IMG/VR virus record: IMGVR_UViG_3300001373_000069
Length of the DNA: 64,000 bases
Reading direction: 5' to 3' (one strand)
DNA from: a virus
Lineage: Duplodnaviria; Heunggongvirae; Uroviricota; Caudoviricetes
Made by a program: the position numbers and the translations under genes. The notes beneath the pieces are model-generated. The model was not told the origin of the DNA and did no database searches. It saw nothing but the letters and a program-made list of their open reading frames with translations. Each line of letters begins with the position of its first letter. Position 1 is the stretch's first letter. Below, in pieces: positions 1,911-40,220 of the stretch.

Positions 1911-2691
1911 AATCTGTTACCAGAGTCAGCTTATCTTCGATAGCATTCTTCATTGATTGATCTTTCTCACAGATTACCGATAGAGTAACTTCCCAAATAC
2001 TGGGTTTGAAACACGCTAATAATCTGTTAACATCTAGATCGGTATTATTACCATCGTGCACACAGTAGTTAAAAAAAGGACGTCGTTTGGTAATGGAATT
2101 CCATAACTCTCCAACTCTACCTATTGTACACAAAGAATTAGTCCTGCTTGGTATTAGTTTATTACGCGCGATATCATAAGATTCATGGACAGAGAATTGT
2201 ATACCAATGGCTGGAATCAATTCTGATAATTTAATAAATCTACCAAAGATATTAGGACCAATACCGGTATTTATCTTTTCTGTTCCAAACGGTAATGTTG
2301 TACTTACCAGTAACTGAGCATTCTCGTAAAGAAGATTGAGATCCTGAATAGCATTTTCAAGTTCATCATAGTTTAGTAATGGTTCTCCCATTGACATGAA
2401 CATAATCTGAAACTTCTTTACACTACTTACATCTACACCAGTATAATCAACTGCATACTTAACTTGAGCAACAATCTCTTCGGCTGTTAGGTTACGAGTA
2501 AAGAATTTACCTGTACCACAGAATACACAACCAACCGGGCATCCACTCTGGGTGGAACAACAAATTACTGTGCGATCCTCGTATGTTGGATACTTGTACA
2601 AAACTGCTTCTGCAACAGCATCCTTTGATTCGAATACAAACTTAACTACATTCTCGTCACTACTTGGTATTGTTTTAATTGATTCAAACAT
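1762..2691 (-). CDS. RlmN/Cfr-family radical SAM RNA methyltransferase-like protein
   Basis: CxxxCxxC 'CSTQSGCPVGCVFCGTG' followed by 'NLTAEEIVAQV'; 'SMGEPLLN' and C-terminal 'DIGGGCGQL' match the RlmN/Cfr layout (CVSSQVGC..C.FC.TG / GMGEPL / DIDAACGQL). Confidence 0.7.
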   Translation of the reverse strand: MFESIKTIPSSDENVVKFVFESKDAVAEAVLYKYPTYEDRTVICCSTQSGCPVGCVFCGTGKFFTRNLTAEEIVAQVKYAVDYTGVDVSSVKKFQIMFMSMGEPLLNYDELENAIQDLNLLYENAQLLVSTTLPFGTEKINTGIGPNIFGRFIKLSELIPAIGIQFSVHESYDIARNKLIPSRTNSLCTIGRVGELWNSITKRRPFFNYCVHDGNNTDLDVNRLLACFKPSIWEVTLSVICEKDQSMKNAIEDKLTLVTDFAPKMAAAGYSTRVFNPAGQDDIGGGCGQLWFVQEWAKKYKDEQCNLPQ

Positions 2692-2701
2692 TTAATTTAT
2701 T

Positions 2702-3031
2702 TTACGATTCATTAACATTATCGTGTACTTCTACCTCTGTGGTATCAGCTTCATTAAAAAGAAATACTCCATTTTCGTCGAAATGACTTAAAACATATTC
2801 TCTTCGAGAGACGCTTAAACCACATGTTTTAGCCTGAATCTGTTCATACACGTCTCGTAAAGTATATTTACCATTCATGTATTGTAACACCTCTTCCTTC
2901 ATATTCATAATTTGAGTATGTTCTGGGTATGGGTTTGAACTCCATTCCTCTGGGTTCTTCGGATTCTGATAAGCTCCACCAACTTCTTCTGCATCAGATC
3001 CATCGGCAGTCTTACCTCTAAAAATAGGCAT
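2702..3031 (-). CDS. hypothetical protein (109 aa)
   Basis: ORF track; starts directly after the stop of helicase exon 2. Confidence 0.5.
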   Translation of the reverse strand: MPIFRGKTADGSDAEEVGGAYQNPKNPEEWSSNPYPEHTQIMNMKEEVLQYMNGKYTLRDVYEQIQAKTCGLSVSRREYVLSHFDENGVFLFNEADTTEVEVHDNVNES

Positions 3032-3033
3032 AG

Positions 3034-3180
3034 TTATCCATTTTTATTGTAAATAATAAGCTCTTTACGAGCGCGTGTCATAGCAACATATAGAGCTTGA
3101 AACCTTTGTTTCCACTCGATAGGCTTAACATCCATAATCTCACCTTCACAAACATACACGTTGTTTAAGGTCATTCCTTG
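3034..3180 (-). CDS. SF1 Dda/RecD-like helicase, 3' exon (motif V tail + motif VI)
   Basis: Minus frame from 3180: QGMTLNNVYVCEGEIMDVKPIEWKQRFQALYVAMTRARKELIIYNKNG*. Joined to exon 1 it gives ...YAYATSLYKA|QGMTLNNVYV (consensus TIHKAQGSTFDNVYV) and YVAMTRARKEL (motif VI). The base preceding the exon on the minus strand is G (omega-G). Confidence 0.7.
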   Translation of the reverse strand, partial: QGMTLNNVYVCEGEIMDVKPIEWKQRFQALYVAMTRARKELIIYNKNG

Positions 3181-4238
3181 CAGTTACCTTATACCTTTCA
3201 ATATAAGCCGGACTATCCCTTAATCTTTAAATTTCCAAAAATACCCAAATGCCTTAATAGTTTTACCATTACAGCATCTTATTATACCAGATTGTCTATT
3301 ACTAGGTAATCCAAGTTTAATAATTGCTAATGCAACAGTGTCGAAAGCCTCGACAAATCCATTTTCATCAGATTGAATCACTCCAGGATATTTAGACATA
3401 CCTTTATTAAAAGGTATTCTACCCTTAAGTCTACTCTTTTGTTCTTCTGTAAATAGTCTTCCACTACTAGCTTTAGATAATTTTAGTTTTGTATCTTTAC
3501 TATGCTTCTTACCTTTCATAGGATGTATAGCACCTGGTTTATTCAACCAGTGACCATTTAAACCAACAGACTCTCTCCAACTATCAATTTGATGCTCGGT
3601 ACGTTTTCTACCTAAAGCATTATTTGATAATTTTAACCTAACTATTGACTTATTGGATTCTGATAATCCTGAAAAGGTGTCACCGCCATCTCCTCCCATA
3701 GTCATATTAGTTAAAGAAAACCCCCACTGAATCAATTGACTGATCCAATATATTTCTAATTCATAAGCATCTTGTTTAGTTTCACAACTATCAAGTTCTT
3801 TTATTAGAGGTTCTAATCCTTTGCTTCTTAATGACTTAATCCAAGAGAGACGTTTATTCCATTTTCTAGTTTCTTTTTCAGCCTCATCCAAGTTCTTTAG
3901 ATGACCGTAAAGTCTTTTTGATAAAGACTTCTTAGTATACCCTACATATCTAACCTCATTAGATATAGGGTCTTCAAGTGTATAAATGTAATATGTTTCC
4001 ATAGTACTATTATAGTAAAAACTAGTTGCATAATCATAGATATAATAAAGATTCCCCCATTATAGTCTCTGAACCTTGAACTCTTTAAAGTTCCTTGGCT
4101 GCGGATTATCCAATTCAACATCTTGTTACCATACCATAATGATTAGTTATGCCGCGTATAGTTCGCACTATACGTTTGGTAATGTTGACTTAAGGAAGTC
4201 CCCGCAATTTAGAGGGTTTTATAAGGCCCATAGTATTA
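3181..4238 (-). other. Group I intron (approx. 1058 nt) interrupting the helicase gene, carrying a GIY-YIG HEG
   Basis: The 5' exon ends in U (..gct) followed by an in-frame stop. The intron's 3' terminal base is G. The intron contains a free-standing HEG ORF and GC-richer structured-looking flanks (4003..4235). Confidence 0.6.
3220..4002 (-). CDS. GIY-YIG homing endonuclease (intron-encoded)
   Basis: N-terminal 'YYIYTLEDPISNEVRYVGYTKKSLSKRLYGH' GIY-YIG motif. Confidence 0.85.
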   Translation of the reverse strand: METYYIYTLEDPISNEVRYVGYTKKSLSKRLYGHLKNLDEAEKETRKWNKRLSWIKSLRSKGLEPLIKELDSCETKQDAYELEIYWISQLIQWGFSLTNMTMGGDGGDTFSGLSESNKSIVRLKLSNNALGRKRTEHQIDSWRESVGLNGHWLNKPGAIHPMKGKKHSKDTKLKLSKASSGRLFTEEQKSRLKGRIPFNKGMSKYPGVIQSDENGFVEAFDTVALAIIKLGLPSNRQSGIIRCCNGKTIKAFGYFWKFKD

Positions 4239-5375
4239 AGCCTTGTACAGCGATGTAGCATAGGCATAATCAAACACAGCAAACGACTGTAAGAATTGAT
4301 TGTAGCGGCTCCATTGACCATATTCGGCGGCCTCCTTGTAACGTTGTCTACGAACTATCTCGTAAGCAGTCTGAGCTTCCTCTGTGTTCATCACGACTGG
4401 TATTCCGGTAGCTGTAGTTGGTACATTATCCAGGGCTAGATATGCACATGGTATACCAAAGGGACCTAACTGATAAGCTATCCCAGTAACTACCGAAATC
4501 TGACCATTATGGATTATAGGAGATCTGTTAACTGAAAATCCTCCTCGAGATATGATTATCTCATTTCTTTCGAATTGATGGGAGTTCTTTCCGTATATTC
4601 TCTCTCTTACCCCAGTATTTAAAAGCTCAATAGTCGAGTTCTTATAGGCTAGTATACGAGTATGATTCTTATCGTTACGATTACTAATTATATCATTAGC
4701 GGCCCGATCAACAGTACAATGAATATCATTCATAAATCTATAACCGGTATCACCTCTCATACAATCCTGTCTACCATACTCTTCTTCGAGAATATACTTA
4801 TTGAACGGTAGATCTTTATTGATGTTATCGATCTCTTGTCTAATCCTGACAGCTAATTCACCGATCGGTCCTTCGAATCGTTGCGAAGTAGTCAACTCAG
4901 CATCTATTCTATCAAATTCTTGTTTTACTGGAGGTAATTGAAATGGGTCGCCAACCACAATTAAGTGAATATCACGAATACTAACCTCGTGCAGAATTGC
5001 GTCAACCAGCGGATCATCTATCATTGATGCCTCATCTATCAAAAGAATCTCAGTACCATCAATTTTCATGTTACCGTTCTTATTTCTTTTAAATGAGATT
5101 TCTTCCGAGGAGTCGTCCATTTGCATGCCAAGTAGTTGTGCTATTGTAAAACTAGTTCCAATAGACTGCTTCAATACTTCTTTAGCAGAGTGTGCTATGG
5201 TTCCACCAACTACTTTCCTTTTCTCGTGCTGCAAAGCCTCTTTTAACATAAAAGTCTTACCACTACCAGGAGGCCCCGATAATACAAAGAACTCGTTTGC
5301 TTGAGCAGGTTTACTTAAGAAATCACGGATTCCTTCGGCAGCTACTTTCTGTTCCTGAGTTAATGTTGATATCAT
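4239..5375 (-). CDS. SF1 Dda/RecD-like DNA helicase, 5' exon
   Basis: Walker A 'GPPGSGKT', motif II 'LLIDEASMI', motif III 'VVGDPFQLPPV'; ORF stops abruptly inside motif V (..FDYAYATSLYKA*). Confidence 0.8.
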
Positions 5376-6445
5376 ACTAATACCATTTTACCTCCACTAT
5401 TAACACATAATTCATCAAGTTCTTTGTTTCTATTTGTGGAAACAGCAAACAAGCGAATATTAGACGGGAAATTAACTATACTCTCCAATCCATCTGTAAT
5501 AAAGATGACTGAATTACTATCATACTTCTTGATATGGTTGTACACGTTTTTCCACCCTTTAGCACTGAGTACCGGAGAAAATTTATAATTGACATACTCT
5601 TTTAGATCCTGTCTTGTATTTAACACAATCTCTTTAACTGGCATATTATTGAACTCCAATATGGTAACTTCAGTAACATCATCGATAAAAGAATCTAACA
5701 GGCTGAGTAGTACAGCTTTAACAATAGAAAAATACTTGGGATTAGTTGACGTAGACCAGGAAACATCCACCATAACCACAACACTGTTGTTCTGGTTCAT
5801 GATGACCTTAGATTCCCGTATGAAGGGTTTCTTCAAGGCTATGTCGGTCTTAAAGGAAGGTAAAGCAAACCTATACTTCCTAATCTTGTGAATGTCACTT
5901 AGTTTAGATAGTCTAGATACTTGAGATACTCTTGTGGGAAATAATTCACCGGCGACATGCTTCATACCATTGTAAAACTTAATGATATCAAGAAGTTCAT
6001 CGGTTAGAACCAGTTCGTTAGCAGGTATACTGGCATCGATCCCTAATAATTCAAGGTGTTCAGGGTTAATCGTAGATATATCATCTTTATAGTTCATCTG
6101 TCTAGATTCCATATCAATAAGAATGGGATTACCAGAAAGTCTACAATATTCTGCACTACGAAGGTTAACCTTAGGGGATATTAGTTTTAGTACGTTGATA
6201 GCAAACTCAATAGGATTATTGGTTTCTACAGAATCAGCATTAACCATATCCATAAGCTCAATAAGAGTTTCTGTGTACGGAGATGGTCTTCCCGTGGCAC
6301 CATAAGCATTCAACATCTTATAGATTCTTAGATAAGCCATGTCTGAAACAATACTAATCGGAATATATCCTTCATACCCCATTCTCTCTGCACTACGCAT
6401 AATATCATATGCAGTAACTATAAAGTTATGAGGAGCTTTCACCAT
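5372..6445 (-). CDS. von Willebrand factor A (vWA) domain protein, partner of MoxR-like ATPase
   Basis: MIDAS-like 'VVMVDVSWSTS'; overlaps and is co-oriented with the upstream AAA gene. Confidence 0.65.
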   Translation of the reverse strand: MVKAPHNFIVTAYDIMRSAERMGYEGYIPISIVSDMAYLRIYKMLNAYGATGRPSPYTETLIELMDMVNADSVETNNPIEFAINVLKLISPKVNLRSAEYCRLSGNPILIDMESRQMNYKDDISTINPEHLELLGIDASIPANELVLTDELLDIIKFYNGMKHVAGELFPTRVSQVSRLSKLSDIHKIRKYRFALPSFKTDIALKKPFIRESKVIMNQNNSVVVMVDVSWSTSTNPKYFSIVKAVLLSLLDSFIDDVTEVTILEFNNMPVKEIVLNTRQDLKEYVNYKFSPVLSAKGWKNVYNHIKKYDSNSVIFITDGLESIVNFPSNIRLFAVSTNRNKELDELCVNSGGKMVLV

Positions 6446-11580: not shown

Positions 11581-11635
11581 AATACTTAAATTTGGATTTT
11601 TTTGACATAGTCTATTTAAGTTATTATAGTTTAAT

Positions 11636-12493
11636 TTACAGATATTTGGACAATATTTGACGACTTTTTTCGTCTTTAAGTTTCTGAAGACCAGATAGTT
11701 TTAACTTTCTTACCTGCTCCGGAGTCATGTCCAACGACTCTCCAACTAGTTTAATCGACGACTTCAGATAATCACCTGAAAACCCAAAGAACGCGCGAAT
11801 TACTTTAACTTCATTTTCTGTTAGTCGAGTAAATACTCTAGCTAAATCAGTATTGAAATCAATTTGATCCATAGGTGAATCGGAACCCGACAACAATAAA
11901 GAATTCTCCATTGGATCATCTTCATCCTCTTCACTTCTAGTTGTCAATATTAACTTTGAGAACATTTTTGGGTTCAATACAAATTCATAGTCTACGTCTT
12001 CCACTTCTCCAATAATATCGGGTAATTCTTTACCGTGCAATTGATCATTATGAAGCTTTTCACGCATTTTCATCTGACTGTTCCGTATGTTCTTTGGTAC
12101 TTTAACAGGTCTATTAAACTGATCTAGGGCCTCTTTCATTTGCCTACTTATACTAACATTGCTATAAGTGACAAATTTGGTGGTAGTTTGAGTTGTATCA
12201 AACTGTTCTATTGCAGCTATTAAACCTATCATACCTTCACTAATAAGATCGGATAGAGGCAATCCTTGTTCTTGGTAATTTTTTGCGATTGAAACCACAT
12301 ATCTACCAAAAGACATTATAATTGCATCTCTAGCATCCATATTCCCATCTCTCCGATACTTGTCTACTAACTCTCTTATAGCAGAATCGTTTGGAAATCT
12401 TGTAGGAGTAAGTTTATCTATATCAGCTATATATAACTTATCTGTCGTATCACGAAGAACCGGAATTATTCTACTATTATAGGATTTCATCAT
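11636..12493 (-). CDS. Sigma-70 family RNA polymerase sigma factor-like protein
   Basis: Region 2-like 'LISEGMIGLIAAIEQFD' and region 4-like 'TPEQVRKLKLSGLQKLK'. Confidence 0.6.
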   Translation of the reverse strand: MMKSYNSRIIPVLRDTTDKLYIADIDKLTPTRFPNDSAIRELVDKYRRDGNMDARDAIIMSFGRYVVSIAKNYQEQGLPLSDLISEGMIGLIAAIEQFDTTQTTTKFVTYSNVSISRQMKEALDQFNRPVKVPKNIRNSQMKMREKLHNDQLHGKELPDIIGEVEDVDYEFVLNPKMFSKLILTTRSEEDEDDPMENSLLLSGSDSPMDQIDFNTDLARVFTRLTENEVKVIRAFFGFSGDYLKSSIKLVGESLDMTPEQVRKLKLSGLQKLKDEKSRQILSKYL

Positions 12494-14574
12494 ACTTTTA
12501 AATCAATATATTCCTTAATCTGAGCGCCTAAAATAAGCTCTTCTGTTTTATCGTAAAAATACTTCCTTGAATACAATTCGATTAAAGCAAGATAATCTTT
12601 AGTCTTACCAAAGAAATCTCTCCAGTAGTTGACTTCGTCAATAAGCAAAATATCAACAGAAGAAATATGATCTACCGTATCACATAGGTAGTCAGGCACA
12701 CTAGAATTGATAATTTTGAGGATATCGGTGGGGTCTTCCATTGATAATATACCTTCAGCACCTAATTGTAGTTGAATACAGTCTCCAAAGAAAACAGTAT
12801 CCATAGTACTTGTATTATAGGCATATGACCTATCAAACCACCCTTTAGTTATTTTAACTAGAGCTACATGTTCATCAGGAAAGATATTCTCTACTACTTC
12901 TGGTAATAGTATTGATTGTGCATTGTACTCGGCAAACAACTTATTAATAACCGACGCGGTTGCAGCAGCTTTAATATCATCTCCGAACACTAACTTACCG
13001 GAATTGGAATCATAAGACTTAACAACAAACTCATTAAGTGTTTTATACTTAGGTGAATTCATAAAATACTTCTCATTATCCTTAGCAATCAATACCATCT
13101 CAATGGGTTTAGCATTAGGGTTGAAGCAAGTGTAATTAGGAACACCGTTATCATCCAAACTATCCTTATCTCCTCTCCAATCATTATGACAAGATAGATA
13201 ACCATGCGGAAACTGATTTGCAATATTCTTCATATCAGACCTGTCATTAGATGTACCGTAGATAACTACTTTAGAAGGATCATAGAGGGATGGGATATTA
13301 CTTATATTGGTATCATAAGCACTGAACACATAGTTATTGTATGACTTATTGATCTTATGAACTACAATTTGAGCATTGGCTTTTCTAATAGCACCTCTAT
13401 CGATAATTGTATTAGAACTATCATCAGGGTCTCCTCCCGAATCAAGTTCACCTGCTAAATAAGCTTCCATAGTATCATCCGGAACTTTAACATCCGAATA
13501 CTTAAGAATCTTAGCAGAAGATAGAACTAGTTTCGCGAATAGATCAGCTTTATAGAACTCATCTTTAGGTTGAATCAACACAAAAGCGCCGACAGTATCA
13601 CTTAAGTACCTATCAACGTACATATCTGCTTTACCTTCGGAAAAATATACCGGAAGTGCAAATGCATCTACTCCAGCAATATTACCGCGCTCAATCTTAT
13701 GAGTATACCTATCGTATATAACACGACGGGCCATCAACTTATTTCCAATCATCTCAATAACTTTAGTAGAATACTCTACTTGTGTATTGAGGGGATATCT
13801 AACGTTAGTAATAGCACTGGCATCAATAATTGACGCTAATCTACCAATAACACTCGAGTTATTACCATTCTTCAACGCAGACATAGTTTGAGCGGCCTTA
13901 ACCATCCATTCCATGTAGTCTGTTTCACTAGACAAACTATCATTAACAAACTTTGCAGCTGTTAGCGATACCCGGTCATAAGCTTCCAGTACAGCTTTAC
14001 GAGTCTTTGGAGACCATACAAGAGCTTCTCTTGACGGAGTAACCTCAACATCGTTTACACTTAATATGAAGCCTACAGCGCCTCGTTTGGGTTCTATTTC
14101 AAGTTCATTAAAAGCAATGAAACCATAATTAATCAAGGCTTTACCTGTACCCAATAGAACGTGTGGCTTGTCATATACAGTGGATTCTGAGATAATAATA
14201 TCATCATCTCTGTATAATTCTTTAGCAGCGATATCTACATTGGTATAGGATAAAGCACCTTGAGCTTTAGTGTATACTTTGATATTAGGAAGGTACATTA
14301 ACTGAGACTGTATAGCCTCAAATAACAACTTCTTATTATGCTTTTTAATTTCAACCTGAACCTCTAACCCATTCTTTTCCGAGGTTTCTTCGTAATAAGC
14401 TATACAATCATCTGTTAACTGTAAATACTCATTTACTTTTCCACCACTTATTTTGGGAGTTACAGGGTCCACTTTGTCTAAATAGACGTCGAATTTGAAC
14501 TTTTTACCATTATATCTGTTGATTACCCTAAAAGAGTCAACATTCAATGATAGAGCTACTTTACTACCTAACAC
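12490..14574 (-). CDS. Large ORF (694 aa, GTG start as reported), candidate downstream exon of the split GHKL/Hsp90-like ATPase gene
   Basis: N-terminal '..VLGSKVALSLNVDSFRVINRYN' aligns loosely with Hsp90 'GFYSAFLVADKVTVITKHN'. The in-frame open frame extends only 3 codons upstream to a TAA that lies next to the repeated 14-mer. Confidence 0.5.
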   Translation of the reverse strand: MLGSKVALSLNVDSFRVINRYNGKKFKFDVYLDKVDPVTPKISGGKVNEYLQLTDDCIAYYEETSEKNGLEVQVEIKKHNKKLLFEAIQSQLMYLPNIKVYTKAQGALSYTNVDIAAKELYRDDDIIISESTVYDKPHVLLGTGKALINYGFIAFNELEIEPKRGAVGFILSVNDVEVTPSREALVWSPKTRKAVLEAYDRVSLTAAKFVNDSLSSETDYMEWMVKAAQTMSALKNGNNSSVIGRLASIIDASAITNVRYPLNTQVEYSTKVIEMIGNKLMARRVIYDRYTHKIERGNIAGVDAFALPVYFSEGKADMYVDRYLSDTVGAFVLIQPKDEFYKADLFAKLVLSSAKILKYSDVKVPDDTMEAYLAGELDSGGDPDDSSNTIIDRGAIRKANAQIVVHKINKSYNNYVFSAYDTNISNIPSLYDPSKVVIYGTSNDRSDMKNIANQFPHGYLSCHNDWRGDKDSLDDNGVPNYTCFNPNAKPIEMVLIAKDNEKYFMNSPKYKTLNEFVVKSYDSNSGKLVFGDDIKAAATASVINKLFAEYNAQSILLPEVVENIFPDEHVALVKITKGWFDRSYAYNTSTMDTVFFGDCIQLQLGAEGILSMEDPTDILKIINSSVPDYLCDTVDHISSVDILLIDEVNYWRDFFGKTKDYLALIELYSRKYFYDKTEELILGAQIKEYIDLKV

Positions 14575-14783
14575 TTTGTTATCTTAAAGGCTCTTTATCC
14601 TTTAATTCTCATACTTTACCATAGTATGATGTTCGGACTATGTCATCACCCTAAACCAGGGTGTCGCGCGCTCGTGTCGTTTTACTGTCCGTTCTGGACT
14701 CCATACGTTAGTCTCTGCTCCTTCAATGCATTCCTGCAAAGCTTGGATCACGATTACCCTTCAAGGGAGGGCTTTCCGTGAGT

Positions 14784-15428
14784 TCACGCGATTTTAATGG
14801 GGCTTAGGATTTCATCGACTAAAGCCTTTTTTCTTTTTAAGTACCATGATGAATCAGAGTATAATAGACCAACCAGTAATTCAACATCAGTTTTTCTACG
14901 CACTCTAAGTACATATATTTTCCCCTGTTGTCTAACTGTTGAATGAATACCATAACTGTTAAAAAAGTCTTGTAGTGGTATTATTTCAGGTTCAGTAATA
15001 CACAAAGTCATATTCCAATATGGTTTTCCATCTGTAATTTGCTTTGAATAACAACCATCGCCATCTATATAACCCCTGATATAATGAATAAATAATTCTT
15101 CAGGTAAATCTAATAATACCGATTTTACACCAATATTAACTAAATCAGTATAAAGCTCTTTATTATAAGACCTCAATACTACCTTGTTATTAAATCGTTC
15201 CTCATTATTCCACACATAACTATCCTCGCTATATGATATATTAAAGAATGGAAATTCACTTTCAAATCGTTTAATAATTTCCTCATCTTTAATACTTAGT
15301 TTTAACTTACTACAACTGCTATATGCAATTTTAGAGTAATGCAAACTACCATCAGCATGAAAGAAACCTAGAAAATATGCTTTAGCTTCTGTGTCAATAT
15401 TCTTAAATTCATCATTATAAGATACCAT
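14784..15428 (-). CDS. LAGLIDADG homing endonuclease
   Basis: 'YFLGFFHADGS' and 'YIRGYIDGDGC' LAGLIDADG motifs. Confidence 0.85.
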   Translation of the reverse strand: MVSYNDEFKNIDTEAKAYFLGFFHADGSLHYSKIAYSSCSKLKLSIKDEEIIKRFESEFPFFNISYSEDSYVWNNEERFNNKVVLRSYNKELYTDLVNIGVKSVLLDLPEELFIHYIRGYIDGDGCYSKQITDGKPYWNMTLCITEPEIIPLQDFFNSYGIHSTVRQQGKIYVLRVRRKTDVELLVGLLYSDSSWYLKRKKALVDEILSPIKIA

Positions 15429-15790
15429 AACTATTTATTTGGATTAATTGTAAAATCGTACCAAATATATTATAGTTAGAAAAATTGATTGTGTTTACCC
15501 CATTTCCCCAAAGCATCTTTATTCGCACGCTTTGTAGAATACATTTTATTATTTATATAGGCTCTTTATCCTATACTTTCTACAATTTATCTTGTTATAG
15601 TTGTAGAGTAGACTATATCTTTAACTTGCAAACCGCAAGCAGTGTCCCGCTTTCGTGGAGAACTTTATAGCTTTGGCTTTACCCAGTAAGCGTCATCTCT
15701 AGTCGTTCGGCATTTACAATTATTTCTAACTGATTTAGCACGGGATTGTCCTCTTCAGGAGTTTCCCCGTTTAACGGAATTTATACTCAA

Positions 15791-16429
15791 CTATTCTATT
15801 AAATTACCTTCTTTGTTGTATACTACCCAATGAAATCCTTTACATGTTGTACTGTTGATAGAAGATCTGATAATATGTGATGCATGATTTAGTCCAAGAT
15901 CTCTGAAAGCTTGATATGGATTGTCATATGTATGCACTAAATTCCATTTAGAATCATATTTCTCGCACTTTCCATACTTACCAGTTCCTCTTCTATTTGT
16001 ATTACCAAGTTGTGCAGTTTTAGAAGATTCACTAATCTTTTTCCATACTTCTTGAGTATGTAAATGAGACTGATCTCTTAATTTTGCTTTAGCAGACATT
16101 TTGGCTTTAGTGGATTTACCAAACCTAAACCCAGTAGTTCCCAGACCAGGATAATCAGCATTATAACCATTACTAACGGTATCTAACAAATTAACCCAAT
16201 AGTACTCCATTTGTAAACAATATTCTGGGGGATAAGTCTCGAGAATCTCAAATCTAAATGATTCCTCTCCGTACTTGTTCCAAGAACGTTGTAAATGATC
16301 ATTATAATGAGTATTTGATCGTAATTTACGTCTGTGATCTGACCATCTAGAACTAAAATATCGTTGAGCTGACCCTACGTACATTTTTCCATTAACAGTA
16401 TTTGTGATAGTATATACACCTGATTTCAT
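15791..16429 (-). CDS. GIY-YIG homing endonuclease
   Basis: 'SGVYTITNTVNGKMYVGSAQRYFSSRWSDHRR'. Confidence 0.85.
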   Translation of the reverse strand: MKSGVYTITNTVNGKMYVGSAQRYFSSRWSDHRRKLRSNTHYNDHLQRSWNKYGEESFRFEILETYPPEYCLQMEYYWVNLLDTVSNGYNADYPGLGTTGFRFGKSTKAKMSAKAKLRDQSHLHTQEVWKKISESSKTAQLGNTNRRGTGKYGKCEKYDSKWNLVHTYDNPYQAFRDLGLNHASHIIRSSINSTTCKGFHWVVYNKEGNLIE

Positions 16430-16475
16430 AATATAAGTATTTGTGTACCTATATTATAGTTAATTAATTTGAATT

Positions 16476-16901
16476 TTACATTTTATTGAGTTGAAAATAG
16501 CCTATAAGTCTCTGTTTACCAAGGCCTACACCATTATCAACAATCCTTAATATATCCTTCGATACACCCTCTTCATAATAAATATGAACTAATGGATCAG
16601 TTGATAGCCATGTTGGATCGAAATAACTAGGATCCCACCCCGACGAATGATAGATGCTATCTTGTTTAGTTACATCGAAGTGGTTCTCTACAGCCGAATC
16701 ACCGCGAATAATTGCGAGAGCAACATCCCGTTCCTTGATTGCATCATAGGCATTGGAAGTCAATTCTCTAATAGTTGATTGAATTGGGAATGCATAAAGA
16801 CCACGTTGAAGGATATCCAAGGCTAACGGCATGCTATCCTGATCGATATTCTTACGAATACCACCTTCTGTCTCTATGAACTTTTGTTCTATTACAGCCA
16901 T
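16476..16901 (-). CDS. GHKL (Hsp90/MORC-like) ATPase N-terminal fragment, candidate 5' exon
   Basis: 'RELTSNAYDA' (Hsp90 'RELISNASDA' N-box) and 'LRIVDNGVGLGKQRLIGYF' (G1 box 'IVDTGIGM..'); the ORF stops right where the G2 box would begin. Confidence 0.6.
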   Translation of the reverse strand: MAVIEQKFIETEGGIRKNIDQDSMPLALDILQRGLYAFPIQSTIRELTSNAYDAIKERDVALAIIRGDSAVENHFDVTKQDSIYHSSGWDPSYFDPTWLSTDPLVHIYYEEGVSKDILRIVDNGVGLGKQRLIGYFQLNKM

Positions 16902-31318: not shown

Positions 31319-31463
31319 ATGTACTAGAGGGACTTGAACCCCCGACCCCGCCCTCCCAGGCACGTATACTGTCAGTCTAGTCTCTTGTACTTCAAGACTT
31401 CAAACAACTTATCGTCGACGGTGGTGTTTTAACCACTACTCTAACCAACTGAGCTATAGTACA
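31319..31463 (-). ncRNA. tRNA-like element (145 nt): tRNA-Ile paralogue with ~65-nt insertion between anticodon arm and T-arm, and a non-canonical (6- or 8-nt) anticodon loop
   Basis: Perfect 7-bp acceptor TGTACTA/TAGTACA. D-arm is TAGCTCAGTTGGTTAGAGT. The 24-nt T-arm segment gagggacttgaacccccgaccccg is identical to tRNA-Ile at 36038..36061. Anticodon region is GTGGT-TAAAAC-ACCAC, followed by CGTCGACGATAAG..GGGAGGGC before the T stem. Confidence 0.55.
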
Positions 31464-31467
31464 TTTG

Positions 31468-31540
31468 ATGTGATGGTGGGATTCGAACCCACGGCATACC
31501 CCGGGTTAGGGAGCTGCTCTACCAACTGAGCTACATCACA
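31468..31540 (-). tRNA. tRNA (73 nt), anticodon loop CUAACCC: formal anticodon AAC (Val) with C37; assignment uncertain
   Basis: Acceptor TGTGATG/CATCACA, D-arm TAGCTCAGTTGGTAGAGC, T-arm GTGGGTTCGAATCCCAC. Confidence 0.65.
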
Positions 31541-31550
31541 AACATTATTT

Positions 31551-32429
31551 TTACTTCAAATTGATCATTGGAATACTGCTACCAGTAACCTGAGGTAGAT
31601 GACCATCCCATTGTAGAATTTTCTGATACTCAATAAGAGCAGGAGTAATAGCAGCAGCCTTCAACCTATTAGCTTTAGATTCAGCAGTAGCAGCAATGGT
31701 AAGAGCATCGGCTTCTCCCTGAGCAACAGCAACTTTCTTAGCAGCTTCGGCTTCGGTGGCTCTCAACTCATTCTCACGTTGTTGGGCAATTTGTGTAGCT
31801 TCGATCTTAGAATTAATAGCTTTCTTAACCGATTCCGGTACTTTGATACGACCGATCCAGTAGATTTCTTCAATAATAATTCCAAGAGGCTCACATTGTG
31901 CAATCACATTCTTTTTAATAGTAGACATTAACCCTGTTTTACCTGCTCCATAAATATCAGCTACATCCATAGTGGAAGACGCATTCACAAGAGCATTTCT
32001 AACCATATTCCGCAAATAGATATGAGTAACTTCATCTAATCCTTTCTGATATTTCTGAAAGATTACATCTGCTTTATCCGGTTGTATATGATATGTAATA
32101 CCAAGATCAGCATTTAACTCCAAACCCTGAATATCCTGAAAATTAAAGGACTCATCATTAGGACTACCTTCAGTTGAATCTGATGTCCATACATAGTTCT
32201 GTGTAAACGTTGGAAACGCATATAAAGTGGTATTAATACCAACAGTATAACGCCCTGGAGTCAACTCAACAGTATTAACACCTTTGTTCGAACCGAATTT
32301 GGTTACTTTGACGGCAACCGTACCCGGCTCAACGTCTTTAATTTTACATGACGAAAACATAATTGCCCCAAGTAGGACAAACAAGATAACATTTAATTTA
32401 CTTCTCATTTTAGTACAACTGTTTAACAA
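31551..32429 (-). CDS. SPFH/band-7 (prohibitin/HflK-like) domain lipoprotein
   Basis: Lipobox-like 'MFSSC'; SPFH core and C-terminal coiled region 'AQQRENELRATEAEAAKKVAVAQGEADA'. Confidence 0.65.
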   Translation of the reverse strand: MLNSCTKMRSKLNVILFVLLGAIMFSSCKIKDVEPGTVAVKVTKFGSNKGVNTVELTPGRYTVGINTTLYAFPTFTQNYVWTSDSTEGSPNDESFNFQDIQGLELNADLGITYHIQPDKADVIFQKYQKGLDEVTHIYLRNMVRNALVNASSTMDVADIYGAGKTGLMSTIKKNVIAQCEPLGIIIEEIYWIGRIKVPESVKKAINSKIEATQIAQQRENELRATEAEAAKKVAVAQGEADALTIAATAESKANRLKAAAITPALIEYQKILQWDGHLPQVTGSSIPMINLK

Positions 32430-32607
32430 GTTTGATAATATAACGAATCACAAGAAAAATGATGACTGGCATCACAAATAATGAACCAAGGCCCAGGAAG
32501 ACTACAGTATCTGAATTTGTGCTCATAACAGCAGGAAAAAAGATACCAACATAGAGAAACAAAATGACTATTAATAGACATATTGCTAAATACAATTTTA
32601 ACTTCAT
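32410..32607 (-). CDS. small membrane protein (65 aa)
   Basis: ORF track; two hydrophobic helices. Confidence 0.4.
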   Translation of the reverse strand: MKLKLYLAICLLIVILFLYVGIFFPAVMSTNSDTVVFLGLGSLFVMPVIIFLVIRYIIKLVKQLY

Positions 32608-32709
32608 TTTATATTTGTATTAAATGGTTTCAAGGGAGAAAGGTATCGAGACTCATTTCCGCGACGGTCTCTGTTGGATATCTCCGCTTTCGTATAATAC
32701 CTTTCTTTG

Positions 32710-32781
32710 TGGGGATGATGGGATTCGAACCCAAGCCTCCGAGCTTTTAGACCCGGTATTCAACCGCCGAACTGCGCCCCC
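32710..32781 (-). tRNA. tRNA-like gene (72 nt) with apparent 8-nt anticodon loop UCUAAAAG (contains CUA/UAA triplets); anticodon undetermined
   Basis: Acceptor GGGGGCG/CATCCCC (one mismatch), D-arm GTTC-GGCGGTT-GAAT, anticodon stem CCGGG/CTCGG, T-arm TGGGTTCGAATCCCA. Confidence 0.5.
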
Positions 32782-32786
32782 AACTA

Positions 32787-33380
32787 TTACTCTCCTTGGA
32801 GAATGTTAATTATATCCCAATACGGAACATCCTTTTCCTTACATGCTTGTATTATCTGCTCAGTAGAGTATATTGGTTTATGAGCTCTTACATATGTATC
32901 GCGTGACTCTTTATACCGGAAATACTTCCAGTTAGCAGTATTTCTACCCATTCTAAGACGTATCCATAATTCAAGACTAGTGGTTTCTTTTTCATTCCAC
33001 CCTTCTTTAGGCAATAAAGAATAAATAGGAACATTACAACCAAGAAGATGACAGTCTTCTAAGCGTATATTAATCTCATCGATAAGATGCTTTTCAGCTG
33101 CTTCACGCGAACTAAATACTTCTTTCTCCATACCATCTAAGTCGTATTTACTAACAATGAAATTAGATACTTTACACATAGTATTATATACCCAACAGGT
33201 CTCCCCTTCATGGATATCTACACCATCCACTGATCGTATAGCTACTCTAGAAGCAACTTTTTCCCAAAACTCAGGATATTTCTCTGGTTGTATAGTAAAC
33301 CATTCATTAGTTGTACTGACAATCACCTTACCAAGTTGAGGAGAGCCTGGATACTCTTTCTTTAATTTATAAGATTTCAT
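32787..33380 (-). CDS. hypothetical protein (197 aa)
   Basis: ORF track. Confidence 0.5.
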   Translation of the reverse strand: MKSYKLKKEYPGSPQLGKVIVSTTNEWFTIQPEKYPEFWEKVASRVAIRSVDGVDIHEGETCWVYNTMCKVSNFIVSKYDLDGMEKEVFSSREAAEKHLIDEINIRLEDCHLLGCNVPIYSLLPKEGWNEKETTSLELWIRLRMGRNTANWKYFRYKESRDTYVRAHKPIYSTEQIIQACKEKDVPYWDIINILQGE

Positions 33381-34456
33381 AAACGTCTGATTATTAATTA
33401 CTTAGTGGAGATGGCGGGAATCGCCTTAAAAAATAATTTCGCACAGTTCCATATTTATTATTATAATGCTATTATACATTATAAAACATAAAGATATGAA
33501 AACAATTAATTGTACATGTAACTACTGTAATAAATCTGATGAAGAACACATTAACACATAACCAAACAGTAGAATTTTTACAAGAAATAGCAAAATTAAT
33601 AAATACTTAACTTTCGTTAAGGGTTGGACTATATCATCACCCGTTCTGGGTGTCGGATGCTCTAGGCTCACCTTAGTGTCCTTAGTCTCTGAACCTTCCT
33701 CATTCTTCCATGAGGCTCGGCTGCTGATTGACATGTAAATTAAATAGCGTTCAGTATGTACTGCTTCACTTTAATGGGCTCTACATAGTCCCAACTATTT
33801 AATTTATTTAGCTTTCCAGCAATTCTTCCAATTATTTAACTGAGTATTCCTACTCAGTGGGTCCGATTCCTTTTAAACCCGCGTCCAAACATCCGGTAAT
33901 ATTAGTGCTACTTACGTGCGTAGCTGGAATGACGTCCAGCACCTAGGACCAACTGTTTACAGCTGGAGCTCCACCACCTTATTTTGAGAAAACAAGGAAA
34001 ACAACTTGCTGATTTTCTGTTTCTAGGATCACAGCTACCCAATCGCCATATTAAGCTGCAAGAGCCGTAGCGAAAGACATTACGCGAACGTTGTCCTCTA
34101 TAGTTCGATGGACTACCATCATCTTGCACGGACTAATACCCACTGACAATGCTGTCAAAACCAGTCATCCCCGATTATTATTTCATTCGATATAATCCAT
34201 AACAGAGCCACATAATAACTGAAAATTCAACATCTTTTGTTGTAATTAATTCAACGATAGTTATTAGTGTAATACAGAACATAGCAGGATGTTTTATGAA
34301 TACTTCTTTCATTCGATATCAATTTGAATAAACGACATTGTTAGAAAAGATACACCAGTACAAAATGCAATGACTTTGATTGGTTCAGTAGAGGGATATA
34401 GATCAGGGTGCATAATAGAGAATGCTATGAAAAGCATACCCACAACAATACCCCAT

Positions 34457-34864
34457 CTAACTTTTGTTTTCTTTCGCATTATCTTCGTAGTATTTAATAT
34501 AAAGTGCTTGTTGTCTAATTCCTTCAACAAACCCAGCCATTCTAGCTGCTTTAAAGGATCTCTTTCTGCCTTGGATCATACCATTGGCATCAGCGAGTAA
34601 AAGTACAGCAGCTTTTAATTGTTTAGCGTCTTCACACTGGTTAACAGTTTCATAACCACACATTGATTTGAATCCTTCCACAGCATTAAATCCGTATATA
34701 AGCTCTTCAGCATTACTTACCAAATCTCTACCCCAATTATTTAAAGTATCTTCTGGTTTGGGACTACCATAATCTCTAAGATACTCACCTACATGTTTAA
34801 CAAATGATAACAATGTCACATACCAATGGTGACTACCGATTGGTGAATTAGTACTACTTTCCAT
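34457..34864 (-). CDS. hypothetical protein (135 aa)
   Basis: ORF track. Confidence 0.45.
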   Translation of the reverse strand: MESSTNSPIGSHHWYVTLLSFVKHVGEYLRDYGSPKPEDTLNNWGRDLVSNAEELIYGFNAVEGFKSMCGYETVNQCEDAKQLKAAVLLLADANGMIQGRKRSFKAARMAGFVEGIRQQALYIKYYEDNAKENKS

Positions 34865-34965
34865 ATAATGAATAGTTTAGATTATTAGTAAACAGCCCAC
34901 TTAACACTCGGTATAGATGTATAGGGCTGTAGGCACTGGGATACTATCCCGGTGGGGGATACCGA

Positions 34966-35292
34966 TCATCTCTTTCGAAAGCGATCTTTACGTATAAAGT
35001 CAAAGTGTAGTGTATCACCCACCTTGTACTTAAAATCAATAAACCCGGGAAGATTAATACTATTAAGAGTAGTAATCATACTAGTATCCTGTAGACACTG
35101 AACAATAACAAACGATTCAGGAACAACAAAGTTGTTGACGGGCTTATAATGACCATCTGATACAACAATGCATTTAACATTGTAGTACTTAGGTATACGT
35201 AAGTCTTCTCTTATCTTTAGACCATAGAAAGCAGCTATAAACAAAGCCATAGCAACAAAACACATAGTCATCAGATCATCTAGTTGTCTCAT
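34966..35292 (-). CDS. hypothetical membrane protein (108 aa)
   Basis: N-terminal TM helix 'MTMCFVAMALFIAAFYGL'. Confidence 0.45.
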   Translation of the reverse strand: MRQLDDLMTMCFVAMALFIAAFYGLKIREDLRIPKYYNVKCIVVSDGHYKPVNNFVVPESFVIVQCLQDTSMITTLNSINLPGFIDFKYKVGDTLHFDFIRKDRFRKR

Positions 35293-35312
35293 GAATTTAA
35301 TTTAGAGTTAGA

Positions 35313-35386
35313 GGACACGGAGGGATTCGAACCCACGGTTGTACGGATTTGCAGTCCGTTCCCTTGAGCCGCTCGGGCACATGTCC
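35313..35386 (-). tRNA. tRNA-Cys (GCA)
   Basis: Acceptor GGACATG/CGTGTCC, anticodon stem ACGGA/TCCGT, loop CUGCAAA, T-loop TTCGAAT. Confidence 0.8.
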
Positions 35387-35469
35387 ATTTGTGGCTGGAA
35401 TCAGTTGTACACCCTGTCCAGCGAGACTGTCTATGTGCCTTTCGGCAGAGATTACGACAACACCATTTG

Positions 35470-35543
35470 TAGCGGGAACAGGACTCGAACCTGTGACCTC
35501 CGGGTTATGGGCCCGGCGAGCTGACCAACTGCTCCACCCCGCT
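35470..35543 (-). tRNA. tRNA-Met (CAT), initiator-like (three G-C pairs closing the anticodon stem; close to E. coli tRNA-fMet)
   Basis: AGCGGGGTGGAGCAGTTGGTCAGCTCGCCGGGCCCATAACCCGGAGGTCACAGGTTCGAGTCCTGTTCCCGCTA. Confidence 0.75.
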
Positions 35544-35713
35544 ATTTATCTTTCTGCAACATGATGACATGGTTTCTTATACTTGTACGAATCAAAGATC
35601 TCTTCTTTAAGCTTGTCTGCTTTAATGACATCACCCTTAGACTTTAACTCATTATAAGCTGTCCATCTTTCATCGTCGCTAATGTTTGGTTTCTTTTCTC
35701 TTTTCATTGTATT

Positions 35714-35789
35714 ATTACTAGTAGTGGCAAACGGATTTGAACCGCTGACCTCCGATCACCTCCTGACCGACGCTCTAACCGTTGAGCTA
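35714..35789 (-). tRNA. tRNA-like gene (76 nt) with non-canonical anticodon arm; loop region reads CAGGAGGUGAUC (11-nt perfect Shine-Dalgarno / complement of 16S 3' end GAUCACCUCCU)
   Basis: Acceptor TGTGGTG/TGCCACT (1:72 mismatch), canonical D-arm TAGCTCAACGGTTAGAGC, T-arm AGCGGTTCAAATCCGTT. Only 9-nt-loop (TCGGT/ATCGG) or U33-less 7-nt-loop pairings are possible. Confidence 0.5.
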
Positions 35790-36029
35790 CACCACAATAT
35801 GTCTTTACCTATACAGTTCTAAGCCTGTAATATTAAACCTCAAGGGAACACTGGAATTGACACCAGTTACGCAGATTCCTCCACGATGGACTACCTTAAG
35901 CCTTTTTGATCTAACAACCTCAACAAACAGCGTTCCCTTAGAAGAACTACAAGTTGCGTTTGTAAGTGCTCCGCCGTATGGGTGTCAATCCACCGATCTT
36001 CCTTGTTGCTTGTTTATGGTAGGTAAAAG

Positions 36030-36103
36030 TTGAGAGTGAGGGACTTGAACCCCCGACCCCGAAAGTATCAGTTTCGTGCTCTAACCAACTGAGCTAACTC
36101 TCA
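36030..36103 (-). tRNA. tRNA-Ile (GAT)
   Basis: Acceptor TGAGAGT/ACTCTCA, anticodon stem CGAAA/TTTCG, loop CUGAUAC. Confidence 0.85.
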
Positions 36104-36239
36104 ATACAAACAGGAGACACTTGTTTTTCTCACCTTAGAAGTTTGAATTGCTGTATGTCTCCTTAGTAACAGGGGTCTGTTAACGTGTCAAATTAAAAGT
36201 TTGATGTTTGTTTGCTTGCTGCAAGACCCCTTATTATTT

Positions 36240-36461
36240 TTACATAGCTGGATTTTCTACCCAGCCAGGTTTCAGCTTATCCATTTTGGTTAGCTGACCT
36301 GTGTAATCTTCGTATTTATCCCATTCCCCGGCACAGTGAAACACCACAAAACAATACCCACCCATTACATCAGGTGGCACTGTCTTAACTTTACCATTCT
36401 CGTACTTTTCGGGAGGACAATTAGGATAAGGTTCATAATGAACTAAATCTCCTTTTTTCAT
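36240..36461 (-). CDS. hypothetical protein (73 aa), paralogue of 39597..39857
   Basis: Shared 'GD(L/K)VHY.PY..C...E..NG.VK' and C-terminal 'W(V/E)' motifs. Confidence 0.5.
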   Translation of the reverse strand: MKKGDLVHYEPYPNCPPEKYENGKVKTVPPDVMGGYCFVVFHCAGEWDKYEDYTGQLTKMDKLKPGWVENPAM

Positions 36462-37171
36462 TATCTAAAAGTATTGTTGGGGAACATTTTTGGTAAATCG
36501 CTGTAAGCCATTAGTATGGCACCCTCTGGTAAATCAGTATTACCCTTACCATCATACTCAATTCCTGCTTGAAGTATATGTGGAACACCATCTTTCATAA
36601 AGAAACCATCGATATATGCATAGTAAACCTTGCCTTTAATGTAATGACTACCAAATAGTACATTATCATCCGCATCATAAATCTTCTTAAGAAATTGTTC
36701 CGGAAGTTCTTTGAATGGATAAGGACCAGATACCGAATATCTACCCTTATGAAACTCTTTGAGGGCATTGAATTCCTTATCAGCAAATTGCTCTGGAGTT
36801 AAATATGACAGACCCTCGATACCAATTTGTACATAGCAACGATTCCACTCTTGGTCAGTGTGGGTAGATGCTATTAAACAAATAGTTGTGTCAGGGTACG
36901 ATGGATGTTGTTTTATCTCTATGATCTCATACTTATACTCTTTATAAATAGGAGTCTTACTTTTTAACTTCTTAGGTTCACGTTTGTTAACAGTACCCTT
37001 AAGAGTTAAGTTGGGTTCATATTCATATTTCCAATGAAAATCAATATCACAATAATCAGGTAATTTAGTTTCCCAATTAAACACAGACTTATGTTCTCCA
37101 TTCTCCCATGTCCACATAGTAGAATAGATCTTATTCCAATTTACTACAAATACCTTATCTCCTACTTGCAT
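36461..37171 (-). CDS. hypothetical protein (236 aa)
   Basis: ORF track. Confidence 0.5.
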   Translation of the reverse strand: MQVGDKVFVVNWNKIYSTMWTWENGEHKSVFNWETKLPDYCDIDFHWKYEYEPNLTLKGTVNKREPKKLKSKTPIYKEYKYEIIEIKQHPSYPDTTICLIASTHTDQEWNRCYVQIGIEGLSYLTPEQFADKEFNALKEFHKGRYSVSGPYPFKELPEQFLKKIYDADDNVLFGSHYIKGKVYYAYIDGFFMKDGVPHILQAGIEYDGKGNTDLPEGAILMAYSDLPKMFPNNTFR

Positions 37172-37409
37172 ACAATTCCTCCCATTTAAGACTAGCTATA
37201 AGCCAGAAGTTTAATTTCTCAGGAGATGAATCCCATTTAAACCCATTAGCAAGTAATTCACTAGCATGGGTAATATCCATTTCATTACGTATAAGACAGT
37301 TTGCTTCAAACTTATCAAACAAGTCGTTTTCACGTAAGAATAGTTCAAACATTGCTAAGTCAGCCTTATTAACAAACTTAAGCATTCTAGCTCTATACTC
37401 TTCAAACAT
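37155..37409 (-). CDS. hypothetical protein (84 aa)
   Basis: ORF track. Confidence 0.45.
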   Translation of the reverse strand: MFEEYRARMLKFVNKADLAMFELFLRENDLFDKFEANCLIRNEMDITHASELLANGFKWDSSPEKLNFWLIASLKWEELYASRR

Positions 37410-37430
37410 ATGATTTAATTTATTAATTAG

Positions 37431-37502
37431 TAAGCAGGGAAGGATTCGAACCTTCGCTATTCATTCCACAGCCATGCGTGTCTACCACTGCACCACCTGC
37501 TC
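37431..37502 (-). tRNA. tRNA-like gene or pseudogene (72 nt): good acceptor, D- and T-arms but no base-paired anticodon stem
   Basis: Acceptor GAGCAGG/CCTGCTT, T-arm GAAGGTTCGAATCCTTC. Positions 27-43 (CATGGCTGTGGAATGAA) have no complementary 5-mers. Confidence 0.4.
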
Positions 37503-37593
37503 ATGTACCCCACCGAGTCAGTATCCTTCTAAGGGTGGGGTCTCTTGTGTAATTGCGTATTCAGATGTATTTATCTTAAGGCTATCATTTCTT

Positions 37594-37686
37594 AGGTAGT
37601 TGCTCTATCACTGAGCTACACGGCCATTTGTGTATTATATTTAGAGGCCGTGACGGGACTCAAACCCGCGACCGACTACTTAAAAA
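37594..37686 (-). ncRNA. Permuted or split tRNA-Lys(UUU)-like locus: 3' half (loop UUUUUAA, anticodon 3' stem, T-arm, acceptor 3' strand) lies upstream of a 20-nt spacer and the 5' half (acceptor 5' strand, D-arm, anticodon 5' stem)
   Basis: Minus strand 5'->3': ..TTTTTAA-GTAGT-CGGTC-GCGGGTTTGAGTCCCGT-CACGGCC-[TCTAAATATAATACACAAAT]-GGCCGTG-TA-GCTCAGTGATAGAGC-A-ACTAC-C.. Acceptor halves are perfectly complementary (GGCCGTG/CACGGCC) and anticodon stem halves ACTAC/GTAGT are perfectly complementary, but they are in the reverse gene order. Confidence 0.5.
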
Positions 37687-37840
37687 CATACTTATGTATA
37701 TTTTTGTAGTTAGACACCTGACGCTTTATTACCGATAAAGGTCAAGCTAAGTCTTTTGGATCAACACTAAGTCTAATTTGCTGCTGTGGAGCGTCAATTA
37801 AGGCTAAGGTTAAGACTAAAGCTCGAACCAATAATATCGT

Positions 37841-38647: not shown

Positions 38648-38665
38648 GTTTATGAAATTTTAATG

Positions 38666-38884
38666 TTAAGACTCTTTTTCTTCGAAAGTAGAACATTCCT
38701 TGGCCATCCATATAGGATCAAAATTGAATGGATAAAAGAACCATCCATGAGATATACCATGTGAATTACCAATCATATTCAAATCCGGTTTTACACAACT
38801 AATATGACAATCACCCGGAATAGATCGTCTATGTTTGCATTTAATACAGTTAGCACGAGCTTTTACCGCAATATCTTTATCCAT
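38666..38884 (-). CDS. Cys-rich hypothetical protein (72 aa)
   Basis: 'CIKCKHRRSIPGDCHISC'. Confidence 0.4.
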   Translation of the reverse strand: MDKDIAVKARANCIKCKHRRSIPGDCHISCVKPDLNMIGNSHGISHGWFFYPFNFDPIWMAKECSTFEEKES

Positions 38885-38993
38885 TACTAAATTTTATTAA
38901 TACAACCATCACATCCAAGTGATTTAGCTCGACTACACTCATCAGAATCTATTCGCTCCTTTACAATTTCCACAAGGATATTTCTAGGCAAAC

Positions 38994-39579: not shown

Positions 39580-39596
39580 TCTGTTTAATTTAAGTA

Positions 39597-40214: not shown

Positions 40215-40220
40215 CAGGAA

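Follow-up and report, generated by a model that had tools for sequence, protein, structure and literature searches.

A putative self-splicing group I intron bearing a GIY-YIG endonuclease gene interrupts the motif V codons of a Dda-like helicase gene in an uncultured tailed phage

Analysis of a 64,000-nucleotide (nt) stretch of DNA from the Caudoviricetes record IMGVR_UViG_3300001373_000069 (the window in what follows) revealed a Dda-like helicase gene that is split in two within the codons of helicase motif V. The intervening 1058 nt match the group I intron family and carry an open reading frame (ORF) for a putative GIY-YIG homing endonuclease. The split gene is observed directly and lies far beyond chance; that the intron is functional and self-splicing is predicted from its sequence with high confidence. 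All gene, exon and intron coordinates given here are window positions on the minus strand unless stated otherwise.

Anatomy of the split gene and exon junction

The first exon (4239..5375) comprises 379 codons and encodes helicase motifs I, II and III as well as the first half of motif V, ending in ..YKA. According to the ORF list and its translation, the 3' end of this exon reads ...FDYAYATSLYKA and is followed directly by a TAA stop codon at 4238..4236; its last base, as read from the sequence, is U (T in the DNA) at 4239. The second exon (3034..3180) consists of 48 codons (3180..3037) and a stop codon (3036..3034). Its translation from 3180, QGMTLNNVYVCEGEIMDVKPIEWKQRFQALYVAMTRARKELIIYNKNG, begins with QGMTLNNVYV and supplies the rest of motif V together with motif VI, YVAMTRAR. 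Between the two exons lies the intron (3181..4238; 1058 nt), whose first codon is a UAA in frame with exon 1 and whose last base is a G (omega-G) at 3181. The insertion splits motif V between its codons for Ala and Gln (..YKA/QG..). In the predicted ligated exons, ...CTGTACAAGGCT at the end of exon 1 is joined to CAAGGAATGACC at the start of exon 2; the reading frame continues across the join (1137 + 147 nt), giving a protein of 427 amino acids (aa).

A first-pass annotation of this region had described the 379-aa helicase ORF ending in the middle of motif V, its missing tail at 3180..3034, the terminal U of the 5' exon, the terminal G of the intron and the GIY-YIG ORF inside the intron, and each of these can be read directly in the sequence (T at 4239, G at 3181, ORF at 4002..3220 with its stop codon included). 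The downstream frame had been given as 46 aa; its position stands, but its length needs correction, as it has 48 residues from 3180 and 46 only when counted from the ATG at 3174.

The same annotation had proposed that joining the two frames restores a motif V of superfamily 1 (SF1), and comparison with intronless relatives bears this out. A search with the joined protein recovered about 100 relatives (35-80% identity), all of them from metagenomes. Nine full-length intronless homologues (P0002, P0004-8, P0010, P0012 and P0015; 48-73% identical) are uninterrupted and ungapped at KA/QG, where their alignment reads ...YATSLYKAQGM(T/S)LN.VYVCEGEIMDVKPIEW.QRFQALYVAMTRA..., and P0002 shares 47 of the 48 residues of window exon 2. 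Additionally, five homologues (P0003, P0009, P0072, P0090 and P0093; 37-81% identical) and P0121 end exactly at ..YKA or ..YRG, like the window ORF.

Residues 4-425 of the joined protein match PHROG 325, "Dda-like helicase", with E = 2e-72. Alignment to Dda/RecD, which the first-pass annotation had suggested as a check, places T4 Dda (PDB 3UPU; E = 5.5e-10, residues 27-420) across the junction without a gap, and 9KWF (E = 7.5e-13) is likewise ungapped across KA/QG. Exon 2 alone resembles Pfam UvrD_C_2 (E = 5.3e-06), with a score of 26.6 bits that is slightly below the cut-off of 27.4. The motifs GPPGSGKT (I), DEASM (II), GDPFQLPPV (III), YKA/QGMT (V) and YVAMTRAR (VI) are complete only in the spliced product. 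Judged by these motifs and alignments, the joined product is a complete SF1B Dda/RecD-like helicase with predicted 5'-3' DNA-unwinding activity. Its best match among deposited phages is only about 27% identical and comes from crAss-like phages.

Evidence for a group I ribozyme

The Rfam model Intron_gpI (RF00028) matches 4248..4022 with 52.2 bits, against a gathering cut-off of 50, and a 3' piece at 3295..3189 with 26 bits; the match comes in two pieces, since the ORF lies within P8 and breaks the model there. A related locus has an ORF-less intron (L001:4426..4676; 251 nt), which gives a single full-length Rfam match of 84.4 bits (E = 4e-22). Once the 809-nt loop of P8 is removed from the window intron, the two introns are 92.8% identical, whereas their first exons are only 75.7% identical in nucleotides (80% in protein).

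A P1-P9 structure model was drawn on the L001 intron, and base pairs were counted in the five aligned introns of the window, L001, L003, L007 and L009. Standard pairs fill 94.9% of the 374 pair cells, compared with 33-45% in controls whose 3' partners were shifted by 1-3 columns. Compensatory two-sided changes occur in 25 of the 76 pairs, distributed over P3, P5a, P5b, P5c, P6a, P8 and P9, and none of 500 shuffled controls reached the observed value on four of five measures. Of the 76 model pairs, 75 form in the window intron, and its stem differences from L001 all keep pairing, being either compensatory (three pairs) or G.U changes. The P3-P9 core, with its P3/P7 pseudoknot, has covariation support, and the stretch 3181..4238, which the first-pass annotation had put forward as a group I intron to be checked with the Rfam model, both passes the Rfam threshold and is able to adopt the group I core. 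When the ORF-deleted window intron is folded to minimum free energy with no constraints, P1, P5b, P6, P8 and P9 are again recovered (z = -3.3).

In P1 (4223..4244), positions 4244..4237 pair with 4230..4223, so that the exon sequence AAGGCU (4244..4239) and the intron bases UA face UGGGCCUU; the splice site is marked by the wobble pair U4239.G4228 (AAGGCU/GGGCCUU), and P1 is 100% paired in all five aligned introns. The 5' part of the core, supported by the 52.2-bit Rfam match and covariation, extends over 4042..4238. It contains P1, P3 (4216..4212 with 4058..4054), P4 (4206..4201 with 4105..4100), P5 with a P5a/b/c three-way extension (4196..4109), P6/P6a (4099..4073) and the 5' strands of P7 (4069..4062 with 3216..3210, the 3' strand being AUAGUCC) and P8 (4053..4046 with 3229..3222). 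The 3' part (3181..3232) provides the 3' strands of P8 and P7, then P9 (3207..3188; 3207..3200 with 3195..3188, closed by a GAAA loop) and the terminal G. Neither P2 nor P7.1/P7.2 is present in the core of the window intron model, and one arm of the P5abc-like extension is capped by a GCGA loop.

Two other classes of intervening element, an intein and a group II intron, were considered and discarded in view of the stop codon that forms the first intron codon and of the Rfam match to group I.

The intron-borne GIY-YIG endonuclease gene

The ORF looped out of P8 (3220..4002) encodes 260 aa followed by a stop codon. Residues 4-90 match the Pfam GIY-YIG family (PF01541) with 33.6 bits against a cut-off of 22.6, Pfam NUMOD3 is matched with 20.4 bits, a score equal to its cut-off of 20.4, and the protein belongs with PHROG 314, "homing endonuclease" (E = 2.8e-19). 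On these family matches the ORF product is a GIY-YIG homing endonuclease with a candidate NUMOD3 DNA-binding module, with predicted activity and a predicted target. Orthologous ORFs in the introns of L003, L007, L009 and L012 are intact and 35-72% identical to the window ORF. Residues I6-Y7-T8, Y19-x-G21, R30, H34, E83 and N99 are invariant in the five orthologues; their catalytic roles we take to be those of their I-TevI counterparts. A C-terminal block (..RQS.I.RCC.GKT.KA.G..WKF, of which ...G..WKF is invariant in the five) matches no model. Coding sequence and ribozyme overlap, since the 3' strand of P8 is made up of the final ORF codons (K-F-K-D-stop).

The nearest proteins of deposited phages are 26-40% identical and come from Bacillus phage PBC2, Flavobacterium phages and uncultured jumbo phages. 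The PBC2 homing endonuclease matches the window ORF over its full length (26% identity), whereas the GIY-YIG proteins of Flavobacterium phages match in the N-terminal GIY-YIG domain (35-40% identity). Both fall in PHROG 314, and their relationship to the window ORF is very distant.

No Shine-Dalgarno sequence precedes the endonuclease ATG. A candidate -10-type promoter, TTACTATAATA (4008..4018), ends 5 nt upstream of it and may give rise to a leaderless or nearly leaderless endonuclease mRNA. The arrangement TACTATAATA-N5-ATG is kept in L003, L007 and L009 while the flanking sequence varies. The other two intron ORFs of this stretch, which lie in an rIIA-like gene described below, are preceded by TAACTATAATA; the motif (T/A)ACTATAATA stands before all three intron ORFs (4018..4008, 15478..15468 and 16462..16452). 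The motif in this form, or its shorter version CTATAATA, is possibly a phage promoter element. Across the window it is not significantly enriched (10 matches against 5.6 expected), and a scan of 2600..5600 for sigma-70 promoters and terminators gave no enrichment over shuffled sequences. CTATAATA alone was also seen at 12482..12475 (-), just past the end (12490) of the rIIA-like ORF, at 11629..11622 (-), with 41 nt separating it from the start of an ORF at 11580, and at 62593..62600 (+), 17 nt before a tRNA-Tyr gene.

Distribution among relatives and mobility

At least six lineages have an intron at exactly the motif V site, and the identity of their helicases to that of the window is 37-81%. 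Introns of 1048-1065 nt with a GIY-YIG ORF are found in the window, L003/4, L007/8 and L009-11, while L001/2 carry the 251-nt ORF-less intron. In L012/13 the site holds a 998-nt intron (L012:5237..6234) of another architecture, with a short P5 and an insertion of about 60 nt between P7 and P3' (Rfam, 45.8 bits), in which a member of the same endonuclease family is nevertheless lodged in P8. The exon end of L012 (AGGGGU) and its guide (GGCUCCU) have changed together. The L012 intron suggests either heavy remodelling or the transfer of an endonuclease between introns. The site is empty in L006, L014, L337, L338, L094 and L095.

All six of the introns examined at the motif V site begin with an in-frame TAA or TAG and end with G. 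Immediately before the splice site, T stands in six of six occupied sites and in two of six empty ones (hypergeometric probability about 0.03, for lineages that are not independent), in keeping with the need of P1 for a U in its wobble pair. The ORF-less L001 and the endonuclease-bearing L003 come from one and the same metagenome sample, 3300033562. As read from these alleles, gain, ORF loss and absence among relatives make up the classic homing-endonuclease intron cycle.

Moreover, the same helicase has a second site of insertion, in motif III (..LIVVG/D.NQLPPV). There, L094 carries an ORF-less insert of about 320 nt (L094:~3661..3981) and L095 an insert with a 248-aa ORF (L095:~2875..3925). 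By eye, these inserts show a terminal G and the helices P1 (AGUCGGU/GCUGACU, including a U.G pair), P4, P6 and P7, and it is on this reading that they are regarded as putative introns; Rfam returned nothing for either at E <= 0.01.

Deposited phage genomes contain no close nucleotide relative of the window intron and its surroundings. Megablast of 2700..5700 against 50,697 deposited phage genomes found no match, and blastn of the ORF-less intron against deposited phages gave two weak partial matches only. When metagenomes were scanned for the junction in its spliced or intron-less form (TAYAAGGCTCARGGNMWRAC), with a ligated-exon transcript or an empty allele bearing T at position -1 in view, at least 120 loci matched, and none of the matches listed encodes a close relative. 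The P4'-P6-P7 core pattern was tried as a marker of this intron family and abandoned: its more than 120 matches on viral contigs, giant-virus contigs included, mark it as generic for group I introns.

Proposed mechanism

We propose that the helicase gene would be transcribed as a single pre-mRNA, on which a ribosome translating exon 1 would halt at the UAA that is the first codon of the intron, freeing the ribozyme to fold. Such an in-frame stop at the start of a phage intron has been described as letting the ribozyme fold (PMC3984707). The intron would then adopt its P1-P9 core with the P3/P7 pseudoknot, lacking P2 and with the endonuclease ORF extruded from P8. An external guanosine would attack after U4239 in the U.G wobble pair of P1, and the freed 3'-OH of exon 1 would in turn attack after the terminal G at 3181, removing 4238..3181 and ligating the exons into an mRNA for the complete 427-aa helicase. 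The endonuclease would probably be expressed from its own promoter-like element. In a mixed infection, it could cut intron-less helicase alleles of related phages near motif V, and repair off the intron-bearing copy would insert the intron by homing.

A more speculative extension, which we regard as tentative and rather improbable as it stands, is that the element is not just a passive parasite and that the endonuclease serves as a weapon, made from a leaderless or nearly leaderless mRNA under the conserved internal promoter and cutting the intron-less or differently occupied motif V alleles of co-infecting relatives. It draws support from the two intron architectures, the two insertion sites and the coexistence of ORF-bearing, ORF-less and empty alleles, two of them from one sample. 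If true, helicase motifs III and V would be recurrent battlegrounds.

Points of doubt and alternative explanations

Several observations weigh against a functional, mobile intron. The full-length window intron barely exceeds the Rfam cut-off, a score that reflects the splitting of the match by the 809-nt ORF insertion, and the introns of L003, L007, L009 and L012 remain below the cut-off of 50, at 39-47 bits. P1, P4, P5, outer P6 and nearly all of P7 are invariant or almost so across the five introns; since P4, P5, outer P6 and nearly all of P7 never vary, the catalytic centre is backed by conservation and not by covariation. Of the P1-P10 fold anticipated by the first-pass annotation, the P1-P9 core stands, whereas a P10 pairing, sought by eye in the window intron, was not convincingly found. 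Searches of the PDB with the single endonuclease sequence and with a five-sequence profile detected neither I-TevI, I-BmoI nor any other solved homing endonuclease at E <= 1, and for want of similarity to I-TevI the protein is filed as a member of the GIY-YIG family rather than as an I-TevI orthologue. Finally, the window helicase lacks the residues HQSKF after motif III (PPVKQE^FDRIDAEL) owing to a 15-nt in-frame deletion between 4917 and 4916 (-). These residues are present in 14 of 14 aligned homologues; P0121 has them too, and they are its sole difference from the window exon-1 product. The deletion might impair the helicase, whether spliced or not.

We are less confident of continuing endonuclease activity than of splicing, and the most probable alternative concerns mobility alone: the intron would be real and could splice, while its endonuclease is inactive, retargeted or decaying and the element is now inherited only vertically. 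The ORF-less derivative in L001 indicates that ORF loss happens in this intron family, and both the lack of detectable similarity to any characterised homing endonuclease and a NUMOD3 score just at the cut-off would agree with decay. We nevertheless consider it unlikely, since the ORF is full length, the invariance of the GIY-YIG residues across five orthologues that share just 35-72% identity points to purifying selection, and occupancy of the site is patchy, with the structurally different L012 intron bearing the same endonuclease family at the same position.

A dead ribozyme, which would make exon 2 a remnant and the helicase a pseudogene ending at residue 379, is far less probable. In its favour are an Rfam score that exceeds the cut-off by only 2 bits and the 5-aa deletion after motif III in the window allele. 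Decay of this kind is difficult to reconcile with an exon 2 that is still in frame and as close to intronless P0002 as described, with a ribozyme that forms 75 of 76 pairs and whose stem substitutions are compensatory or G.U-neutral, with a core 92.8% identical to that of an 84-bit intron, or with the persistence of the split arrangement in six lineages.

That a free-standing endonuclease gene split the helicase into polypeptides of 379 and 46 aa (from the ATG at 3174) which reassemble with no splicing at all is scarcely credible, even though this ATG is preceded by AAGGA and T4-like phages are known to contain genes that endonuclease insertions have split: the AGGA lies just 1-2 nt from the ATG, L003, L007, L009 and L012 have Q instead of M and hence no start codon there, and the 251-nt insert of L001 retains the full ribozyme with no endonuclease, whereas a mere spacer would not maintain structural covariation. 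The reading that we retain is a self-splicing group I intron in the Dda-like helicase gene.

Genome context and other elements of the window

Neighbouring genes code for a FEN-type exonuclease, a bpMoxR ATPase, a radical-SAM protein, a sigma factor, rIIA- and rIIB-like proteins and the large terminase subunit, together with about 15 tRNAs. Syntenic relatives occur on contigs of 147-178 kb; this and the gene content suggest that the phage is large and lytic and belongs to an uncultured lineage.

The rIIA-like gene (12490..16901 (-)), with a GHKL-type N-terminus (PHROG 612/3661), appears to consist of three exons split by two more group I introns, which Rfam places at 15580..15842 (53.9 bits) and 14608..14867 (56 bits). 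An I-TevI-like GIY-YIG ORF (15791..16429) is carried by one of them and a LAGLIDADG ORF (14784..15428) by the other. The strongest group I intron match of the window, at 33605..33884 (-) with 76.3 bits, is ORF-less; it adjoins the tRNA cluster, and the surrounding stretch has no convincing reading frame. A hatchet self-cleaving ribozyme (RF02678) was matched at 49859..49997 (-) with 77.2 bits against a cut-off of 51. The tRNA genes lie at 31319..43098 (-) and 62617..63728 (+). ARAGORN reports one tRNA with an abnormal two-base anticodon at 32709..32781, and a 145-nt tRNA-like match of Rfam at 31319..31463 was not called by ARAGORN.

Comparison with known introns and significance

The closest parallel is the td intron of phage T4 with its endonuclease I-TevI, along with nrdB and sunY of the T-even phages, which likewise are group I introns in phage DNA-metabolism genes. 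In td, too, a GIY-YIG ORF is looped out of the ribozyme and an in-frame stop codon stands at the start of the intron (PMC3984707). As in td, the window intron is inserted in highly conserved, functionally critical codons, and a homing mechanism is to be expected. The td intron ORF is located in P6, whereas that of the window is in P8. The host gene also differs, being a Dda-like helicase, and the core has neither P2 nor the P7.1/P7.2 elements that typify subgroup IA2, but the long three-way P5 extension instead. The endonucleases themselves share no detectable sequence similarity. In the literature searched, no group I intron is described within motif V of a Dda-like helicase.

Several endonuclease-bearing group I introns per genome, in core replication or structural genes, have been described in Twort-like phages of Staphylococcus (PMC5618024), in the Bacillus phages SPO1 and Moonbeam (PMC4299906) and in the Delta and Zeta groups of crAss-like phages (PMC7886860). 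With four Rfam group I introns in 64 kb the window resembles these phages; unlike them, it has no nucleotide-level relative among the deposited phage genomes. The intron-encoded endonuclease gp210 of PhiPA3 mediates interference competition between co-infecting jumbo phages (PMC11620839). Here as there, an intron endonuclease resides in an essential phage gene, and related phages with and without the element co-occur (L003 and L001). The host gene and phage lineage are different, and a competitive role in the present case would be hypothetical.

The window intron is a fresh and clean example of a well-known type of selfish element and not a new kind of system. It confirms known biology without extending it, and would not surprise a specialist. 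Its practical consequences concern annotation in the first place: gene callers report a truncated helicase of 379 aa, while the real product, if splicing occurs as predicted, is complete at 427 aa, and at least seven truncated clusters of this kind, with ends in ..YKA or ..YRG, are already found in public protein collections. The endonuclease represents a new GIY-YIG lineage far from I-TevI, and its highly conserved target region, probably SF1 motif V, could interest enzyme engineers. Together, the relatives provide a natural series for the study of intron gain and loss, which includes the intron with its endonuclease, an ORF-less form, empty sites, a different intron with the same endonuclease family and a further site in motif III.

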